Source: a virus (Duplodnaviria > Caudoviricetes). From it: DNA of 64,000 bases. The notes beneath the pieces were generated by a model. That model searched no databases and was not told the DNA's origin. It saw only the letters and a list, made by a program, of their open reading frames with translations. Where the stretch lies: positions 1,129-65,128 of the IMG/VR virus record IMGVR_UViG_3300044724_008054. The stretch is one strand, 5' to 3'. Made by a program: the position numbers and the translations under genes. Each line of letters starts with the position of its first letter. The stretch's first letter is position 1. This document shows, piece after piece, positions 10,865-56,140 of the stretch.

Positions 10865-10890
10865 ATGAGTATTTATAAATTGTTTCGTGT

Positions 10891-19078: not shown

Positions 19079-19093
19079 ACAAGCATATTTATA

Positions 19094-24952: not shown

Positions 24953-25592
24953 TTTTTACCTTTCTAAATTTAATTACTTTGTCTATGGCCTCCTGTGCCA
25001 TCATGTATATGGGAGTGATAAATTGTTCCTTTGTCACGTAGAAATATCCACCAAAACAGTACGGACACTTGTCCTCTAGATAATTCATTATAGCATAACC
25101 TGGCACCAAGCAGTGGTCCACGTTGCGTTCCAAAAATTCCCTAAGGTTATCTCTCTGTGCTTTTGTTATATGCAGGTGTGCATCTTTTTTGAGGTACACT
25201 TGATATTGATATTTGCCGTGTGGCAATCTTGTGCAACCAACTGTGTTCCTGTCTAATTTTGTAAATTTTGGATCAACAGTTTCGGATCCTATCCAATAAT
25301 CCCAATATTGTTCTATCAGTTGTTGTGCAAGTTTTTTATCTGAATAAAACATTGATTTTCTATCCTGGAATCTGAATTTCATTTTGTTTCTGTTTTGCAT
25401 TATGAAATTAGCAAGATAGACCATGTCCGAAGCATCGTAATGCCTTTTCTTAATAGAAATCAAATGTTCGTTGGTGGTAGGATAAAATTGTATACTGCCC
25501 GGCATCTTGAAAATTGTTTTATACCTATACTTGCCGTAGTATAATCTATTGTGATGTTTTCTCATCCGATACCTTTGGCTTGAATTGTTCAA
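24924..25592 (-). CDS. hypothetical protein
   Basis: 222 aa ORF; true start may be 25565. Confidence 0.65.
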   Translation of the reverse strand: MNNSSQRYRMRKHHNRLYYGKYRYKTIFKMPGSIQFYPTTNEHLISIKKRHYDASDMVYLANFIMQNRNKMKFRFQDRKSMFYSDKKLAQQLIEQYWDYWIGSETVDPKFTKLDRNTVGCTRLPHGKYQYQVYLKKDAHLHITKAQRDNLREFLERNVDHCLVPGYAIMNYLEDKCPYCFGGYFYVTKEQFITPIYMMAQEAIDKVIKFRKVKNGSNKKVTR

Positions 25593-27888
25593 TAACTTTT
25601 TTTGCTTTAAAGTTTACAGAAAGTTTAGGGTCACTGTCAGTGGTTAGGCTGACTTCTACCATGCCTCCTTCTGTAAGTTCTCCAAACAACATCATCTTAC
25701 TCAACGGTTTCTTGATCTCATCATCTATCACACGTTGTAGTGGTCTCGCACCCAACTTGGCGTCGAATCCTTTTTTGACCAAATAGTCTATTGCTGGATC
25801 TGTTGCATTTACTTCTACATTTTTTTCAATGGTCATTGTGTTTAATTCTAACAAGAACTTCTTAACAATTGACTTCATTGTAGGTTCTGCAAGTTTATCA
25901 AATTTAATAACAGCATCTAGCCTATTTCTAAACTCTGGTGGGAAGAACTTCTTGAGTGCATTATCATCCTCACCTTGTCTTTCACTTGGTCCAAAACCTA
26001 TGTTGTTTCTTTCCATTGCTTCTGCACCCAGGTTAGAAGTCATGATAAGTGTGATGTTTCTACAGTCTGCTTTTTTGCCATTTGAACCTGTGACAGTACC
26101 ATAATCCATCACTTGCAATAGCATATTGGACACATCTCGATGTGCTTTCTCGATCTCATCAAATAAAACTACTGCGTGTGGATTCTTCTCAACCTCGTTG
26201 ATGAACATACCACCACCCATGTTGCTGTCTTCATACCCCACATAACCTGGAGGTGATCCAATCAGTTTTGCGATAGAATGTTTTTCTTGATATTCTGACA
26301 TGTCAAATCTTATCAATTCAACACCTAGTGTTTTTGCCAGTTGTCTTGCAGTCTCAGTCTTACCGCATCCTGTTGGTCCTAGGAACAAGAATGATCCTAC
26401 TGGTTTTGTAAGGCTTTTCAAGCCTGCTCTGGCAACTAAAATCTTGTCTGTAATAGTGTTGATTGCTTTGTCCTGTCCGTAAACCTGCAGTTTCATCTTC
26501 TCTTCTAAAGTTTTTAAATTACTTGCCTGCTTTTGACTCAATTGCTCAATGCTTATACCTGTCATGACAGATATCTCATGTATTATCTCTTCATGATCTA
26601 TCTTACCATCTTTTACTCCATTCAGTCTCAATCTAGCACATGCTACATCAATCACATCTATGGCCTTGTCTGGCAGTTTCTTGTCAGCGATAAATTTAGT
26701 GGAGTAGTCCACAGCGTCCTCACAGGCCTCATCGGTAATCGTGCAGTTGTGGAACTTCTCGTAGTATTGCTTCACACCTTTCAATATTTTCACTGCTGTC
26801 TCTTTGCTGGGTTCTCCCACTTGTAGTCTCTGGAATCTCCTCATCAATGCTCTGTCCTTTTCAAAGTATTTCCTGTATTCTTCCCAAGTGGTTGATGCAA
26901 GTACTTTTATTGAACCTTTTAGCAGTGCAGGTTTAAGCATGTTTGCCATGTCCATGTTGTTGCCTTGACCAGTTGCGCCAGCACCCACTATCATGTGTGC
27001 TTCATCAATAAACAAGATTGACTTGCCTTTTTGATCTAATGCGTTTACAATCAATTTTAATCTCTCCTCGAAGTCACCTCTGAATTTACTGCCCGCTATA
27101 AGGCTGTTGACATCTAGGCTCCAAACAATGTGATCCTTCAAGTATTCTGGCACATCGTCCTTGTTCTTCGCAATCCTTCTTGCCAGTCCTTCTACCACCG
27201 CTGTCTTACCAACACCGGGGTCACCAACGATAAGAACATTGTTCTTGTTCCTTCTTGCTAATATCTGTTTTAGATCTTCCGTTTCTTGCTCCCTACCTAT
27301 CACGGGATCAATCTTCTTGTCGAAGTATTTCTGGTTCAGGTTCTCACAGTAACTCTTTAGTATCCTGTCCGCTTGGTTGGGTCTCAGTTTCTGCTCTGGT
27401 CCTGCTTCTCCCGGGCCTCCCATGCCTGCCATGCCTTCATCCAGTATGGTCTCTGTTGACACAAGGTCTATGAGGTCCTGTTTGTTGACCTGATGTTTTT
27501 TAAGGAAGAATGCCGCGTAGCTCTTCTTCTCTGCAAATATTGATATTAGTATGTCCACAGAACTGACATCCTGTCTGCCCTGGAATAGTGCCTGGGTGAA
27601 TGCCCTGTTCATCAATCTTTCTAGAGAGGCAGTCTTCCTTGGGGTCATGGGTTCTTTGCCCTTTGTGATTATGTCGTTGCATTTAGTATCTAGGTAGTCT
27701 TCGATGTCTTTTATCAAAGCACCAACTTGTATTTTGAAGTCGTGTAGCACTGTGCCTATAGCCTCATCTTTGACAAGTGCTAACAGTACATGTTCTATCG
27801 TAACGTACTCGTGCTGTCTTTTCTCTGCCTCTTTAACTGCGTTTTCGAATATGTTTTCTAGTCCTTCGTTTGCTTCTAACATCTCCAC
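25546..27888 (-). CDS. clpA: ATP-dependent Clp protease ATP-binding subunit ClpA
   Basis: Clp N-domain (HEYVTIEH), two AAA+ modules GDPGVGKT and GPTGCGKT, RFDMSEY, GARPLQR; no ClpB middle domain. Confidence 0.9.
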   Translation of the reverse strand: MEMLEANEGLENIFENAVKEAEKRQHEYVTIEHVLLALVKDEAIGTVLHDFKIQVGALIKDIEDYLDTKCNDIITKGKEPMTPRKTASLERLMNRAFTQALFQGRQDVSSVDILISIFAEKKSYAAFFLKKHQVNKQDLIDLVSTETILDEGMAGMGGPGEAGPEQKLRPNQADRILKSYCENLNQKYFDKKIDPVIGREQETEDLKQILARRNKNNVLIVGDPGVGKTAVVEGLARRIAKNKDDVPEYLKDHIVWSLDVNSLIAGSKFRGDFEERLKLIVNALDQKGKSILFIDEAHMIVGAGATGQGNNMDMANMLKPALLKGSIKVLASTTWEEYRKYFEKDRALMRRFQRLQVGEPSKETAVKILKGVKQYYEKFHNCTITDEACEDAVDYSTKFIADKKLPDKAIDVIDVACARLRLNGVKDGKIDHEEIIHEISVMTGISIEQLSQKQASNLKTLEEKMKLQVYGQDKAINTITDKILVARAGLKSLTKPVGSFLFLGPTGCGKTETARQLAKTLGVELIRFDMSEYQEKHSIAKLIGSPPGYVGYEDSNMGGGMFINEVEKNPHAVVLFDEIEKAHRDVSNMLLQVMDYGTVTGSNGKKADCRNITLIMTSNLGAEAMERNNIGFGPSERQGEDDNALKKFFPPEFRNRLDAVIKFDKLAEPTMKSIVKKFLLELNTMTIEKNVEVNATDPAIDYLVKKGFDAKLGARPLQRVIDDEIKKPLSKMMLFGELTEGGMVEVSLTTDSDPKLSVNFKAKKVIEQFKPKVSDEKTSQ

Positions 27889-50418: not shown

Positions 50419-50700
50419 TTGATGTTTGTTGAAACATTAAAAACAATGAGACTGTACGAACGCCAGAGCAAATGTGGCGTTTACCACACCTTTCACCGAA
50501 AAAATACTGTATTTGTGTTCAAATGTGATTCATGCGGAGTGCAATTCCTGAGACCGAGAGCGAAAGTGGATCCTGAGAGGGCCACCAATGATTACAAACA
50601 TGTCTGTTCGTGTTGTGACACAAAGAGGTTCGCACAGAAGGTGGGTGTGAAAATGCGTAAGGTCTATAAACTTGACGCTAGTAGCACAATAACTCTATAG
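50419..50700 (+). CDS. small zinc-binding protein
   Basis: CDSC...CSCC; start probably 50422. Confidence 0.6.
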   Translation: MMFVETLKTMRLYERQSKCGVYHTFHRKNTVFVFKCDSCGVQFLRPRAKVDPERATNDYKHVCSCCDTKRFAQKVGVKMRKVYKLDASSTITL

Positions 50701-51438
50701 GGTTTTCCACTTGATATCATCCCTGCCACCAGAGATCCATCTCTGCAGGTCAGCGTATATCCCACACTTGATGTTTGGTTGATCGAAGTACCACCTCAGG
50801 AACGGATTGCCTTCTAGGTATTCCCTCCTGTTGATGAAATGGAAGTTGGTATCTGGAAACTTCCTAAAAGTTTGTCTGAGTTGATACATCCATTCATACT
50901 TGAGATATGCCTTCATGCTTTCTCGTCCTGGATAGTTGTTAGAGCTCTTGTATATGTTGTTCTGTATCCTGCTAGGGGTTTCCATCTCCCATTGTCTGGC
51001 ACCCATGATGTCGAAGGCCAATATCACAATATTTTTAACACCAGATTCAGCGGCCAACAACACAGCGGAACACCCTGAGCCCTTGGCTCTGCTGAAGTCA
51101 TTGGTTTTTATCTTGCCACCTTTCTTGATGTCACCACCCCTCCACACTCTGTATATCTTGAGTCCTTCTGGAACATCTGTTTCGTCGTCACCATCACAGA
51201 TGTAATCCCATTCCGAGATGTTTTCTCTTCCGTATATCTGTGGAGATTCCTTTCCGTTGTTGTGCCATGTCGCCAGTTCCTCGTACATGGGAGGATTTAC
51301 CGCCACTATGTGATCACACAACATAGGGTGGTCCCGGTATATGGCGTTGCAACCATATATCACACCTTTGCCTTTTAAGTTTTCTATTGGAAATATATTT
51401 CTTGACTCACCGTTACCAACTATGAATGCTGTGTCCAT
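50695..51438 (-). CDS. GT29/MptE(DUF115)-like Rossmann-fold transferase
   Basis: AFIVGNGESR...GCNAIYRD...LAFD; paralog of 55424-56059; start at TAATG 51438. Confidence 0.55.
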   Translation of the reverse strand: MDTAFIVGNGESRNIFPIENLKGKGVIYGCNAIYRDHPMLCDHIVAVNPPMYEELATWHNNGKESPQIYGRENISEWDYICDGDDETDVPEGLKIYRVWRGGDIKKGGKIKTNDFSRAKGSGCSAVLLAAESGVKNIVILAFDIMGARQWEMETPSRIQNNIYKSSNNYPGRESMKAYLKYEWMYQLRQTFRKFPDTNFHFINRREYLEGNPFLRWYFDQPNIKCGIYADLQRWISGGRDDIKWKTL

Positions 51439-51791
51439 TACACCCCAAATGATTCTCCACACCCACACCCACTAGATGCATTAGGATTGGTTATTTCAAA
51501 TTGAGAACCAAAGGTCTCTTCTATCCAGTCAATCTTGGTTCCTGCCACGTACAGCATTGAAGTCTCGTCCACAACGAAACGTCCTGTATGCCAGTCTTCC
51601 ACATGGTCGTCTTTGCTTATAGATTCCTTTGTGTCTGCAAATCCCCACTCGTACTTGAAACCTGCACATCCGCCTCCCTGTACTGCTAAACTTACAGCAT
51701 ACTTTCCAGGATTCTTAGACAGAAGTTTCTCTATCTGGTTTTTGGCTTCGTCTGTAATTTCGAACCACTTTTGATTTTCGTAACCTTCCAT
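51438..51791 (-). CDS. iscA: HesB/IscA iron-sulfur cluster assembly protein
   Basis: GGGCAGFKY and CGCGESF. Confidence 0.9.
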   Translation of the reverse strand: MEGYENQKWFEITDEAKNQIEKLLSKNPGKYAVSLAVQGGGCAGFKYEWGFADTKESISKDDHVEDWHTGRFVVDETSMLYVAGTKIDWIEETFGSQFEITNPNASSGCGCGESFGV

Positions 51792-51799
51792 ACTATTAA

Positions 51800-52120
51800 T
51801 TATCTACTTCTCTTCCCCATGTTATTAACTCCGACGGCTAACCAAAATCTTGTGGCATCTCTTTTGTATTGGAAACTCATGTAACTGTCTTGGTCCTCCC
51901 AATTATGGCGCATAGGATCATAAAGCTCAGTAGGTCCCTTGAACCACCAACCCCATTTGCCTTCGCAATTTATCTGGCACCATTCTATGCAGTCACCCAC
52001 TATACCATTTGAGTTCATGTCTATGTTGAACCGGAATTTTTTCTCGTAGCCGCAGTCCTCCGGTATGTCTGATAGATCGGGTTTGATCCTTTTCACATCC
52101 ACTTTGCCGAAACTTTTCAT
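51800..52120 (-). CDS. hypothetical Trp/Cys-rich protein
   Basis: Start at the ATGA overlap 52120. Confidence 0.6.
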   Translation of the reverse strand: MKSFGKVDVKRIKPDLSDIPEDCGYEKKFRFNIDMNSNGIVGDCIEWCQINCEGKWGWWFKGPTELYDPMRHNWEDQDSYMSFQYKRDATRFWLAVGVNNMGKRSR

Positions 52121-52818
52121 TTCCAGTTGTCCTCCACAAACTTGTCTGCACATTCCATAGGATTGGGTGAGCCATGGAATACTGCTACCCTATTGCCAGG
52201 TTCTATTTTAGCCGGTTTCCTAAACCATTTCTTGCCATCCTTGTTGGTCAGCAGTTTGGTATCTTTCAGTCCTACCATCTCCCACTTGTACGATCTTATC
52301 CATTCATCCGGCCACCAATTGATATCGTTCTTGGCCCTCTTGGTTATCCAATCTTGATCTCCGTGGTTCTGTTGCATTATCTGTGCTGATCTGTCTTTGA
52401 ATTCATTCCACAGGTAGTTCATTGTACCTGACTGCCAACGCATACAACTGGAGTTGGACAGTTTCCAGTCTTTTACTCTGCATCTATTGAAGTCTCTTAT
52501 GATCATGAACTTGTCAGGATTGTGAGTGAACAACTGATCTATGTTTTCGAATATCACAACATCCAGATCAAAGAATAATATGTTCCCTTGCAATGGCATC
52601 TCTGGTGCGAACATCCAAAGTTTGCTCCACCATGAGTTGATACATGGATCGTTTGGTAGTTTGATTACATTAATCTCTGGATCCAATCCTGCAGGATCAT
52701 CTGTTAGACAATGGAATTCAAAAGGCACAGTGGTGTGTCTCTTGACCATGCTGTTGAGTACATTGGCGTACTGTGAAACATACTTGTTGCCCCACTTAAC
52801 GCACACTACGTGATTCAT
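52117..52818 (-). CDS. GT-A fold glycosyltransferase-like protein
   Basis: VCVKWG, LFFDLDVVI (DxD), HGDQDW, VFHGSPNP. Confidence 0.75.
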   Translation of the reverse strand: MNHVVCVKWGNKYVSQYANVLNSMVKRHTTVPFEFHCLTDDPAGLDPEINVIKLPNDPCINSWWSKLWMFAPEMPLQGNILFFDLDVVIFENIDQLFTHNPDKFMIIRDFNRCRVKDWKLSNSSCMRWQSGTMNYLWNEFKDRSAQIMQQNHGDQDWITKRAKNDINWWPDEWIRSYKWEMVGLKDTKLLTNKDGKKWFRKPAKIEPGNRVAVFHGSPNPMECADKFVEDNWK

Positions 52819-53974
52819 ATCCCCTTTTCAATCCTTCCATTTGTATCTGTTTCCAGTCCTTGCTGTCCAGTGTGTAAGGAAAATCATTTTCATGAGTTTC
52901 TTTGCCCCTGATAGTGATGTTCTTTATATTTAAATTATCTTTCATCATGTCGTATATCCCAAGGAACGGACGATTTTGAAAAGATGTGGCCAGATCTACC
53001 TGTCCTATCTTGATGTACCCGAGAGAAAGTTTTGGATCTTCCCAATCGTAGTTGTTCTCCTTAAGCCATGCTCGGTATCCGTCCATTTCTTCTTTTTTGA
53101 AATCATGTGTCTGTTCCGTGATCGTATCCCCCCACTCAATATCAAATTCCCCCGAGTAGTATTTTTGGTGATTTATTGCTGAACACAGTGCGTCTGTCAT
53201 CTTAGGTGCGTGTTCGTCTCTGTAAACCTCATACAAAGTTTTGCCTACCTGTGACCAGTGTAGGTACACACCACCCAACTCTCTGTCATACCTATTCTGT
53301 TTGAACAAGTCATAATCTTCTTCGTGTAGGTTATACCTCGGTGAGTTTAGGAATGTGGTTATCTGTGAAGGCCTTATCCATTCAGGTTCGATAAACTTTT
53401 TCCTGTATGCTTCTACCCAACTTTCTATTTCATGGCATATGTTATTCAACTGTCTTATGGCATACTTTGTTTCATGGTCTGCCTGTTTGTAATACTCAGA
53501 AAGTTTCCATGCTGTGCCTTGCAGGTCCTCGAAGTATCTGTGTAGTAGATTACATGCCTCGTGTTTCAACCTAAGTCCGGGTGTCCTTTTAACATCACCG
53601 TCTATCGCTTTGCCTATGGGTAATTTTGAACTGTACTGGAAATCGTCCGCAACAAAGGGATCCATCCTTTCATATGGTGGATCGAATTTGAATGAGTTGA
53701 TCTGTTCTATGCTTTTGTTCAACTCACGACAAAGAAAATTTAAATCTCTGTTGGAGTCCGCCCAACCCAGGAAACAGAAGTTCTTCTCCAGTATTCTTTT
53801 TTTTAATAGATTGTCCTTGAGTGCTTCTATGAATCTTTTACCTAGCGGGGTGTCGTAAACATCAACCTTGACAAGTTTATGATCGTACTCTATTAATATT
53901 TTATCCTCTAGTGTATATGGCACTATTCGCTCCGTGTTCCATACATTCAACACTTTCCACGAAACATCTGTCAT
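52796..53974 (-). CDS. hypothetical protein
   Basis: About 370-390 aa ORF; start uncertain (overlaps the queD end). Confidence 0.7.
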   Translation of the reverse strand: MTDVSWKVLNVWNTERIVPYTLEDKILIEYDHKLVKVDVYDTPLGKRFIEALKDNLLKKRILEKNFCFLGWADSNRDLNFLCRELNKSIEQINSFKFDPPYERMDPFVADDFQYSSKLPIGKAIDGDVKRTPGLRLKHEACNLLHRYFEDLQGTAWKLSEYYKQADHETKYAIRQLNNICHEIESWVEAYRKKFIEPEWIRPSQITTFLNSPRYNLHEEDYDLFKQNRYDRELGGVYLHWSQVGKTLYEVYRDEHAPKMTDALCSAINHQKYYSGEFDIEWGDTITEQTHDFKKEEMDGYRAWLKENNYDWEDPKLSLGYIKIGQVDLATSFQNRPFLGIYDMMKDNLNIKNITIRGKETHENDFPYTLDSKDWKQIQMEGLKRGYESRSVR

Positions 53975-54350
53975 CTGTTTTCTCTCTGATCAGTTTGTCA
54001 GCGAAGTCAAATGCATGTTTGGCAAACATCTCAGCACCCACTCCGTCGAAGATTCTGATTTCTGCCAAGTCAAGACTTTCTAAGTGCTTGAATGTTTCTA
54101 AAAATGGATCTGCCTTGTCCAGTGCAAGTTTGTGATCGAAGTGATCTTCCAACCAAGCCTTCAAAGGTTTTAGTCCACCAAAGTCCACTGCCCAGTTCTT
54201 GTTGTCCAGTCCCTTACATCCAAATGTGAATTTGAAAGCAAGACTGTATCCGTGTAGTAGATGGCAGTGTGAATGATCTGCGTTGGGTTGTCTGAACACA
54301 CAGGCCAATCCTATGTTGTGTCCGTATGTTTTAGTTGAGTAGTAAGTCAT
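53901..54350 (-). CDS. queD: 6-carboxytetrahydropterin synthase QueD-like
   Basis: HCHLLHGY, WAVDFG, FDHK, AEMFA; SD AGGAG 5 nt before ATG 54350. Confidence 0.8.
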   Translation of the reverse strand: MTYYSTKTYGHNIGLACVFRQPNADHSHCHLLHGYSLAFKFTFGCKGLDNKNWAVDFGGLKPLKAWLEDHFDHKLALDKADPFLETFKHLESLDLAEIRIFDGVGAEMFAKHAFDFADKLIREKTDDRCFVESVECMEHGANSAIYTRG

Positions 54351-54414
54351 CGTTTCTCCTGTTTTGATGACTTGCAGAGTGTTTATAGAGGGATGAAAGT
54401 CTTTGAGTCCTCTC
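54344..54414 (-). promoter_or_regulatory. candidate preQ1-I-like riboswitch / translational RNA switch
   Basis: AGAGG-loop-C-CCUCU-AUAAA directly upstream of queD; AAGUC pairs either with the loop GACUU or with the start-codon region. Confidence 0.45.
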
Positions 54415-54419
54415 AATCA

Positions 54420-54674
54420 TTAGTTGAGTTTCTTGTTCAACTTCTGATCTAGATCCAACTGGAACGCTGTGTCTCTGATGCGATCCGTTAGCTCGTTTGG
54501 TATATTTAATTCTCCATCGATGATGCTCTTGAGAAAATGTATCATCACAGTGAACTCATTTGATTTGGACACTGTTTCTGGATCTATTCCATGTTCCTCC
54601 ATGGCATTCAACATTGCCTCCGACACGTCTATCAGTGCCTTGATACTTGTTGAGTGTTTGTCGAAGTGTGCCAT
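54420..54674 (-). CDS. hypothetical protein
   Basis: 84 aa; TAATG coupling. Confidence 0.6.
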   Translation of the reverse strand: MAHFDKHSTSIKALIDVSEAMLNAMEEHGIDPETVSKSNEFTVMIHFLKSIIDGELNIPNELTDRIRDTAFQLDLDQKLNKKLN

Positions 54675-54979
54675 TATGTTATAATCTTGGGTTTTGCAGG
54701 AACTTCGATCTTGCTGAAGACTCTGTTGTACTCATCACGGATCTTGTCGTTGATGTGTGCTATCGACACAATCTTGCTTATTGCAATATCAAAAGGTACG
54801 TCCTGTCTGGCAGTGGAGAAAAATGTAGCAAATGCCAGGCCCTGTGGACCTTGCATCAATACAAGTGCCTTTTCAATACTGACGTATGTGTCAGCCTTGC
54901 CTGTGAATTTTGCGATGACTTCTTCTCCCGAAGCCAATTTAAGAGTTACTAGATCTTCATCTTTTATTTTATCAAACAT
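54674..54979 (-). CDS. Sm-like fold phage protein
   Basis: VTLKLASGEEVIAK; promoter TTGACA-16-TATAAT at 54986-55013. Confidence 0.45.
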   Translation of the reverse strand: MFDKIKDEDLVTLKLASGEEVIAKFTGKADTYVSIEKALVLMQGPQGLAFATFFSTARQDVPFDIAISKIVSIAHINDKIRDEYNRVFSKIEVPAKPKIIT

Positions 54980-54993
54980 ATCCTTATTATAAA

Positions 54994-55404
54994 CTATCCT
55001 ACGAGTTTGTCAATGTATTTTCTTAATTCTTTATCCTGTACGTTGGGTGGAACGTTATTGAAAAAAAATATCTGGTAACTATCGGAACCGTACTTGCCTA
55101 TGCCGTGTAGGTCACTGGCCTCTTTCTTGTTCCAATTCAGATATTGTTCAGTCATCTTACGAATTCTACGTGACCTCACTTCCCACATGCCTAAGGGTTT
55201 AAGCATCTGCTGTTGGGTCTTCAACCTTCCGCGTAGATAAGATTGTGGATCTGGATATCTGTCGAAAAGTTTTGGTAAGATTATTTTGACATGTTTTCTG
55301 TATGTAAGATTAAGGCACATCACAGCCACCATGTGTTTCCATTTCTTGTGGGGAGCCTTTAGTTGCTGTTGCACCATCAGGTGTTCTACCATCGGTTTGA
55401 TCAT
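54994..55404 (-). CDS. HhH-GPD DNA glycosylase (MBD4-like)
   Basis: LKPLGM...LHGIGKYGSDSYQIF. Confidence 0.8.
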   Translation of the reverse strand: MIKPMVEHLMVQQQLKAPHKKWKHMVAVMCLNLTYRKHVKIILPKLFDRYPDPQSYLRGRLKTQQQMLKPLGMWEVRSRRIRKMTEQYLNWNKKEASDLHGIGKYGSDSYQIFFFNNVPPNVQDKELRKYIDKLVG

Positions 55405-55423
55405 ACTGTAATTTTATATGAGA

Positions 55424-56059
55424 TTACTTCTTTGTCAACTGCCTGTTGATGAACTTGGCCATGCCATCATAGGTCTCCTGGAACACGTTCGCCTGTGCCT
55501 TCCATTCCTTGGGCATCTCCCAACGATCATGATTTACCACGATCCATCTTGTGTCTGGATCTGAGTAACCCATTAACTTCTGGAACTGATATATCCAGTA
55601 ACTGGGGTCAACAGGCCTCTTGATGTACTTGTAACCATCGGAACCTGTGTACATATTGTTGATCTTGTCCTTCTCCAATGGATGTAGGTCAAAGCCAAGC
55701 ATGAATATGGCCTTTGGCTTGAAACTCAATGCAACGTTCCCGGCGTGTGGACCGGTGCCCCAGTGAAATGTGTCGTCCTGTCTCTTGTCTCCTGCGTAGG
55801 GTAGTGCTGGTAATGTTTTTACATTGGACCAATTGGCGAATTGGCCTGCCCACATTTCTCTGGTGTATATTGTTGTTCCTTTACCAACGGCGTTGACTGC
55901 CTGTTGGCACATATGCTTGTCTGCACACACCAGGTATTCGGTAACGAAATCTCTGTATATGGCATTACATCCAATAACCGTGCTGAACATCTTCAGAGGA
56001 GAAACGTCAAATCCTCTCCTGCTTTCACCGTTGCCTATTATACTAACATACTTGGTCAT
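55424..56059 (-). CDS. GT29/MptE(DUF115)-like transferase
   Basis: SIIGNGESR...GCNAIYRD...WGTG...MLGFD. Confidence 0.55.
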   Translation of the reverse strand: MTKYVSIIGNGESRRGFDVSPLKMFSTVIGCNAIYRDFVTEYLVCADKHMCQQAVNAVGKGTTIYTREMWAGQFANWSNVKTLPALPYAGDKRQDDTFHWGTGPHAGNVALSFKPKAIFMLGFDLHPLEKDKINNMYTGSDGYKYIKRPVDPSYWIYQFQKLMGYSDPDTRWIVVNHDRWEMPKEWKAQANVFQETYDGMAKFINRQLTKK

Positions 56060-56140
56060 AATGCTATTTAATCACCCCTTTAAACCCACACAGATGCACA
56101 TATACGCATGGTAAAGGTTGGTCTGGAGTAGTTGTATATA

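Follow-up and report, generated by a model that had tools for sequence, protein, structure and literature searches.

The leader of queD in a marine jumbo phage raises the question whether translation of this gene is governed by an RNA switch and, if this is the case, what kind of effector such a switch would respond to. The source of the sequence is a marine T4-like jumbo-phage fragment from IMG/VR (65 kb, 18% complete according to CheckV), of which a stretch of 64,000 nt, henceforth termed the window, was analyzed. The T4-like assignment is based on the DNA polymerase and on baseplate genes, the polymerase being nearest to those of Atu_ph07 and 121Q-type phages, and no nucleotide match of the window to cultured phages was found. 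The nearest cultured relatives of the QueD protein encoded in the window are likewise QueD proteins of phages.

The queD leader and its features

On the minus strand, the leader constitutes a gap of 69 nt between the end of an 84-aa open reading frame (54420) and the start of queD (54350), with the stop codon of the upstream frame residing 6 nt ahead of the first predicted helix, P1. An earlier, sequence-only reading of this DNA had given the sequence and coordinates of the leader exactly as they are found on the minus strand. It had also regarded the leader as the sole sizeable gap of the operon, which has to be corrected as a second non-coding gap of 81 nt is present on the same strand as queD (56060-56140). 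The elements discussed in the following are compiled in Table 1.

Table 1. Predicted elements of the queD leader and flanking genes, with positions referring to the window.
Feature	Position	Strand	Remarks
queD (PTPS/QueD family, 149 aa), putative regulated gene	53901..54350	minus	Pfam PTPS 4e-14; PHROG QueD-like 5e-39
84-aa open reading frame upstream of queD	54420..54674	minus	weak Pfam match to phage late-transcription coactivator, E 1.7e-3, below cut-off
P1 5' strand AGAGG	54409..54413	minus	pairs with 54387-54391
Loop L1, 7 nt	54402..54408	minus	bases 2 and 3 (C, U) invariant; 3' part variable in sequence and length
P2 5' strand GACUU, predicted pseudoknot helix	54397..54401	minus	pairs with 54369-54373
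Loop L2 UCAUC	54392..54396	minus	U, C, A and last C conserved
P1 3' strand CCUCU	54387..54391	minus	pairs with 54409-54413
Loop L3, 13 nt	54374..54386	minus	A at alternate positions, then invariant UCUGC; holds TATAAACA
P2 3' strand (54369-54373) plus AUC	54366..54373	minus	arm common to both exclusive pairings
Shine-Dalgarno sequence AGGAG	54356..54360	minus	in loop of predicted sequestering hairpin
Predicted sequestering helix, 3' arm	54344..54351	minus	spans G at -1, ATG (54350-54348) and codon 2

Conservation and distribution of the leader motif

A QueD search of viral contigs yielded at least 597 loci, and the 80 closest of these (84-100% protein identity) were compared. In this set, conservation of the leader (window 54413-54344, minus strand) exceeds that of the third codon positions of queD. 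The part from 54413 to 54366 is almost invariant, whereas the 3' end of the 84-aa frame and the synonymous sites of queD drift. Within the leader, variation affects the 3' portion of L1, where 1-nt indels also occur, as well as one base of L2, three bases of L3 and the spacer preceding the Shine-Dalgarno sequence. In the marine clade, the G at position -1 is invariant and its neighbor varies. The element is absent from six of the 80 loci, and there queD directly abuts the upstream gene.

A second clade, stemming mostly from freshwater jumbo phages, is represented by contigs of up to 357 kb and by QueD proteins of 173-176 aa that are 43% identical to QueD from the window. This clade came to light because some pattern matches preceded this other QueD, which then served as the query. 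The motif is present in its queD leaders as well, where the sequence has genuinely diverged. Taking two QueD searches with at least 597 loci each, about 150 of the 160 loci taken carry the motif. When viral contigs were scanned with an exact pattern, 183 of the 188 matches listed were located directly ahead of queD, and the remaining ones among those listed were due to contig ends or to one chance match. Searches of the literature did not retrieve any description of the motif.

In prokaryotes, scanning one genome of each species with the pattern gave 14 matches, of which only five are true motifs, and all five reside on short contigs of metagenome-assembled genomes (MAGs) that resemble phage DNA. 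Three of these five copies in 'bacterial' bins (L284, L291, L295) are on short contigs of freshwater Bacteroidota MAGs, which may faintly suggest where the hosts of the freshwater clade are to be sought, unless the contigs were mis-binned. Pattern matches in Lachnospiraceae fall inside coding sequence and do not represent true motifs, and a weak covariance-model match in G002 (18.3 bits) is confined to L3 and was discarded as well. A separate case is locus L245 (2494-3525), where the motif, with a P1 of ACCGG/CCGGU, precedes a gene for a canonical 141-aa PTPS and a QueD-type gene follows directly next to it.

Two further explanations of the conserved stretch were dismissed. A repeated promoter-like element is not compatible with a motif that is unique in the window and present in a single copy per genome in five large records, in which it is placed solely ahead of queD. 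An N-terminal extension of QueD, for which the frame would be open back to a TTG at 54416, is contradicted by the single-base indels that occur within L1 and within the spacer ahead of the Shine-Dalgarno sequence, by the strength of the latter and by compensatory changes.

Comparative evidence for an H-type pseudoknot

Single-sequence folding of the 85-nt leader gave a z-score of -0.63, with P1 missing from the minimum free energy structure, and the 51-nt aptamer reached a z-score of 0.08 against shuffled sequences. Leader and aptamer thus fold no better than shuffles, and energy alone provides no evidence for them. The start-codon stem treated below is the centroid fold of a 41-nt piece (-8.1 kcal/mol, z -3.0). 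What appears decisive for a structure beyond chance is comparative in nature, i.e., near-invariance among relatives together with covariation.

For the latter, 83 distinct copies were aligned with a covariance model that was built with P1 only. As P2 was outside of the alignment model, the counts for this helix are not fitted to it. Considering the ten pairs of P1 and P2 together, 97.3% of the cells pair, compared with 83.1% in shuffled controls (0 of 500 reach the observed value) and 30-58% with slid partners, and both-sided changes are seen in seven of the ten pairs. In P1, which was also predicted independently by RNAalifold, 99.8% of the cells pair, three of the five pairs show changes on both sides, and the middle pair is A-U in 44, C-G in 32 and U-A in seven sequences. 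In P2, the corresponding values are 94.9% and four of five pairs, and five pair types occur at one position; this helix is longer in the second clade, with up to two further pairs, amounting to seven in all. As the stems are invariant in the marine clade, all of the covariation derives from the second clade.

Taken together, the alignment supports an H-type pseudoknot formed by P1 and P2 as the conserved fold of the leader. Leader conservation and covariation in related phages, which the sequence-only reading had named as a test of its proposal, were both found, and the pairing of P2 with the loop that it had suggested is backed by covariation across queD leaders of two phage clades. Strong motif matches in queD-oriented loci are all on the queD strand, and this fact, in conjunction with G-U pairs in P2, points to an RNA of the queD strand as the conserved entity.

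Outside of the helices, about 20 loop bases are invariant, comprising CU in L1, U, C, A and the final C in L2, and U-A-n-A-n-A-y-UCUGC in L3. The L2 residue C54392 is a C in 83 of 83 distinct sequences. Furthermore, the L3 base 54383 covaries with the middle pair of P1 (54411:54389), which may reflect either a base triple or shared ancestry.

Comparison with preQ1-I and other pseudoknot riboswitches

PreQ1-I riboswitches (RF00522) are characterized by an H-type pseudoknot with a P1 of 5-6 bp and a highly conserved specificity cytidine in L2, by a conserved ligand-reading uridine in a short L1 (1-3 nt) and by an A-rich L3 with conserved adenines that lie along P1 and, just ahead of P2, make contact with the ligand. 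In these elements, P2 involves or abuts the Shine-Dalgarno sequence, and ligand binding is repressive (OFF) (PMC10622847). The queD leader resembles preQ1-I representatives of types I-III, e.g., those from B. subtilis queC, T. tengcongensis and E. coli, in being a small H-type pseudoknot with a 5-bp P1, in the invariant cytidine that forms the 3'-terminal base of L2 beside P1, in the adenines of L3 and in being located ahead of a preQ0/queuosine-route gene. These likenesses could be taken to indicate a divergent, true member of the preQ1-I family that binds preQ1 or preQ0, a possibility which we regard as very unlikely.

The covariance-model search that the sequence-only reading had proposed lends no support to such membership: neither the window nor 20 diverse loci gave a match to Rfam 15 at gathering threshold, and the preQ1 families, including RF00522, did not match at E<=10 in any of three leaders (window, L199, L269). 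In the loops, L1 has a length of 5-9 nt and lacks the conserved uridine that contacts preQ1, as its first base, next to P1, is A in 57, U in 17 and C in nine sequences and the invariant U occupies the third position. L3, which comprises 13 nt and contains three invariant adenines at alternate positions, ends in an invariant UCUGC, such that the base before P2 is a C instead of the terminal adenine. Of the three ligand contacts of preQ1-I, just the L2 cytidine appears to be kept, and the leader is thus not a demonstrated member of the family. P2 comprises 5-7 bp and is located upstream of the Shine-Dalgarno sequence, its 3' strand ending 8 nt ahead of it in the window and having the start-codon region as its alternative partner. 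Finally, the motif is known from phage DNA only and would act as an ON rather than an OFF switch, and we know of no preQ1 riboswitch with ON logic. The B. subtilis aptamer sequence that the sequence-only reading had used for comparison agrees verbatim with the one printed in three publications. The resemblance drawn from it holds with regard to the place of the L2 cytidine but not with regard to the identity of P1, which has to be viewed as coincidental since P1 covaries.

Compact H-type pseudoknots are also known from SAM-II and SAM-V riboswitches, in which the aptamers contain loop-helix triples, and SAM-V stems from marine bacteria. The queD leader shares this general architecture and an occurrence in marine microbes; it differs in that it is without a match in Rfam, and SAM-II and SAM-V are OFF switches preceding methionine/SAM genes.

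A start-codon helix that excludes the pseudoknot

In the window, the segment 54373-54366 can alternatively pair with 54351-54344, thus forming an 8-bp stem over the ATG at 54350-54348. This stem and P2 have 54373-54369 in common and are, therefore, mutually exclusive. When the region bounded by the P2 3' strand and the start codon was folded, a helix with the P2 3' strand as its 5' arm was obtained for 71 of 72 distinct leaders, and these fall into four classes. In class A, to which the window belongs, the arm pairs with G-AUG-ACUU. Class B has G-AUG-GCA as the partner sequence, to which the 5' arm is adapted, and the Shine-Dalgarno sequence is covered by an inner helix. The arm pairs with the first bases of the Shine-Dalgarno sequence in class C and forms 8-10 bp with CAAUGGCA in class D. 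Native arm duplexes average -8 to -12 kcal/mol as compared to -2 to -4.6 kcal/mol for shuffled arms, and swapping the arms between classes led to weaker duplexes in 11 of 12 pairings. For a small class of the L056 type, no obvious sequestering helix was apparent.

The exclusive start-codon stem of the sequence-only reading is thus kept, with class-specific complementarity, in four different platforms. Because pseudoknot and sequestering helix exclude each other in all four classes, formation of the former would free the ribosome site, in agreement with the ON logic that had been suggested. On this basis we propose that an aptamer-like domain of about 50 nt folds into an H-type pseudoknot with a 5-bp P1, a P2 of 5-7 bp and three loops with many invariant bases. 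Alternatively, the 3' strand of P2 would pair with the start-codon region, and the resulting 8-bp hairpin, with the Shine-Dalgarno sequence in its loop, would block initiation. Stabilization of the pseudoknot would release the start codon and allow translation of QueD. The likeliest stabilizer would be a small molecule bound beside the invariant L2 cytidine.

A translational ON switch of related design is the adenine-sensing add riboswitch from Vibrio vulnificus. In both cases, the ribosome-binding region is an alternative partner for the 3' strand of one of the aptamer helices, and the folded aptamer frees (in the queD leader, is predicted to free) initiation. In contrast to the queD leader, add contains a purine aptamer built around a three-way junction without a pseudoknot, and the sequences are unrelated.

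The covarying conserved aptamer-like core, the varied platforms and the cis position before functionally related genes are generic features of riboswitches, and on balance we consider it probable, if by no great measure, that the queD leader is a cis-acting translational ON riboswitch. Points against a riboswitch are that switches of biosynthetic genes do not usually follow ON logic and that some relatives do without the element. From the sequence comparisons, the leader appears to be a real, strongly conserved phage-borne pseudoknot switch that most likely represents a new riboswitch class of the ON type.

Transcriptional context

In the second clade, a sigma-70-like promoter was detected in 17 of 43 distinct upstream regions when 120 nt were searched. 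In all 17 cases the -10 box ends 3-17 nt ahead of P1, most frequently 7 nt, and the promoter at locus L199 is a perfect 12/12 site. With the -10 box just ahead of P1, the pseudoknot would be situated at the start of the mRNA. In the marine clade, the pseudoknot follows the upstream stop codon after 2-6 nt and is thus read within a polycistronic RNA. A metatranscriptome library contributed one contig that covers 54259-54489 and thereby the leader and parts of both adjacent genes, with DNA carry-over being possible. Contigs from RNA libraries cover parts of the stretch at low depth, and transcript starts and strands are not readable from them, nor do stretches without coverage carry any meaning.

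The marine arrangement bears on a device that operates independently of any ligand, in which the choice between pseudoknot and hairpin would be made by co-transcriptional folding, temperature, Mg2+ or ribosomes terminating at the upstream frame, resulting in a fixed or coupled level of translation. The stop codon is so close to P1 in marine phages that terminating ribosomes must unfold this helix, and the sequestering stem dominates among the predicted folds. The second clade speaks against this explanation, since there a promoter immediately precedes the pseudoknot, with which the transcript would begin without an upstream frame, and about 20 invariant unpaired bases exceed what a simple folding competitor needs. 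We therefore rate a ligand-independent device as quite unlikely.

A different alternative, raised already in the sequence-only reading, views the conserved box as DNA, namely as a late promoter of the T4 type (TATAAACA), perhaps combined with an operator, so that late transcription would start inside of the element and the switch would be temporal. The source phage is indeed T4-like and, judged from T4 biology, a start about 6 nt past the box would coincide with the 5' boundary of the sequestering stem. However, the window contains TATAAACA instead of the expected TATAAATA. Among close relatives, position 2 of the box varies between A, T and C, and other versions of the box occur in the second clade. 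In addition, compensatory changes and G-U pairs are features of RNA, TATAAATA occurs in the window in two copies, which corresponds to chance level, and a sigma-70-like site is not present in the window leader on the queD strand. In view of the variation of the box, a late promoter is hardly credible as the reason for conservation of the leader.

A leader in which a hairpin over the ribosome-binding site and an internal late promoter are combined is that of the T4 lysozyme gene (e). A hairpin at the start site and a TATAAA-like box within one short phage leader are common to both, but the box of the queD leader lacks conservation and is situated upstream of the 5' arm of the hairpin, so that a late queD transcript would keep the hairpin. 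The two TATAAATA copies of the window are positioned at 10870-10877 and 19086-19093 (minus), each within a short gap and at a distance of 5-7 nt from the ATG that follows.

Candidate effectors and pathway genes

Pseudoknots in phage leaders can also serve as binding sites for proteins. The H-type pseudoknot in the leader of T4 gene 32 mRNA nucleates binding of gp32, which represses translation, and leaders bound by ribosomal proteins offer further parallels. The same pseudoknot and alternative helix as in our proposal could, therefore, be operated by a protein or an RNA, with a phage factor or QueD itself setting the level of translation. The long invariant runs in the loops would suit a protein site, and the motif is seen in phage DNA only. 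The queD leader shares with the T4 gene 32 leader the H-type pseudoknot, the origin from a T4-like phage and a presumed role in translational control; a protein partner is known only for T4, and the conserved fold of the queD leader would activate. Stabilization by a bound protein would accordingly be opposite to classical autogenous repression. Moreover, the motif is kept across clades in which the QueD proteins are 43% identical and the neighboring genes differ, and varied platforms around one conserved core are the usual pattern of riboswitches. A protein or RNA effector is thus considered rather unlikely.

As for a small-molecule ligand, the genes accompanying queD may provide guidance. 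Five large motif-bearing records of the second clade were searched, two of which are complete. FolE is encoded in four of these five records, and FolE and a QueE-like gene are present in the related complete genomes. The latter encodes a 290-aa radical-SAM protein near FolE whose best matches are QueE models, with scores far below the cut-offs. TGT/DpdA was found in none of the five large records and QueC in neither of the two complete genomes. A 7-deazaguanine or pterin route in the motif-bearing phages is plausible. The 65-kb record itself, being 18% complete, contains no gene for QueC, TGT/DpdA, FolE, a radical-SAM protein or a QueE-like protein. FolE was likewise not found in five marine fragments, each of which is merely 7-20% complete and thus too partial to bear on its presence. 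Of the idea that the phage uses a metabolite sensor to gate its own deazaguanine pathway, the queD-specific sensor-like RNA is retained, and the gating of the pathway is not borne out by the record, in which the pathway genes were not found.

Our guess as to the ligand would be a heterocycle that presents a guanine-like face and belongs to the FolE-QueD-QueE route, such as dihydroneopterin triphosphate, CPH4, CDG, preQ0 or preQ1, and an inducer such as the substrate of QueD would suit the ON logic. Tentatively, and with somewhat less confidence than we place in an ON riboswitch as such, we propose a new phage-only riboswitch class that would sense an intermediate between GTP and 7-deazaguanines or pterins and turn on translation of QueD, using a scaffold similar to preQ1-I with a different pocket.

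To our knowledge, only a small number of riboswitches are carried by phages, and there is none that occurs exclusively in phages or that turns on a gene of a queuosine or deazaguanine route. If the proposal is true, a phage-only sensor of an intermediate would be the first sensor of the ON type in 7-deazaguanine/pterin metabolism. Identification of the ligand would reveal what these phages monitor while rewiring host GTP, pterin or 7-deazaguanine metabolism, and would show how far a fold of the preQ1-I type can be re-used with another pocket and opposite logic. The motif is abundant, occurs in marine as well as freshwater jumbo phages and, with about 50 nt, has a size suited for biochemical and structural work; it could also give rise to a compact ON switch for engineering.

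Genomic surroundings of queD and of the FolE cluster

The cluster of FolE and the 290-aa QueE-like gene is exemplified by L298 (G001:202500-209500) and L299 (G004:163500-170500); it is located 20-64 kb from queD and is not accompanied by a copy of the motif. In G004, a purine phosphoribosyltransferase-like gene resides beside FolE and the QueE-like gene. Radical-SAM genes number 9-19 in the related jumbo phages and mostly form tight clusters (167-189 kb in G001, a 357-kb record; 230-261 kb in G003; 35-48 kb in G004).

The marine and freshwater clades partly share the neighborhood of queD (window 50695-56059, minus strand; L226, L207, L247). A protein with a 'GNGESR' motif is encoded upstream of queD and a protein of about 233 aa downstream in either clade, the matches in the window being phrog_30607 for the former and the glycosyltransferase phrog_1962 for the latter. 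An IscA-like gene and a weak HhH-GPD match are also found near queD in the window, which furthermore encodes a Lon-like ATP-dependent protease of 778 aa on its minus strand (25546-27882; phrog_4871, E 1e-248).
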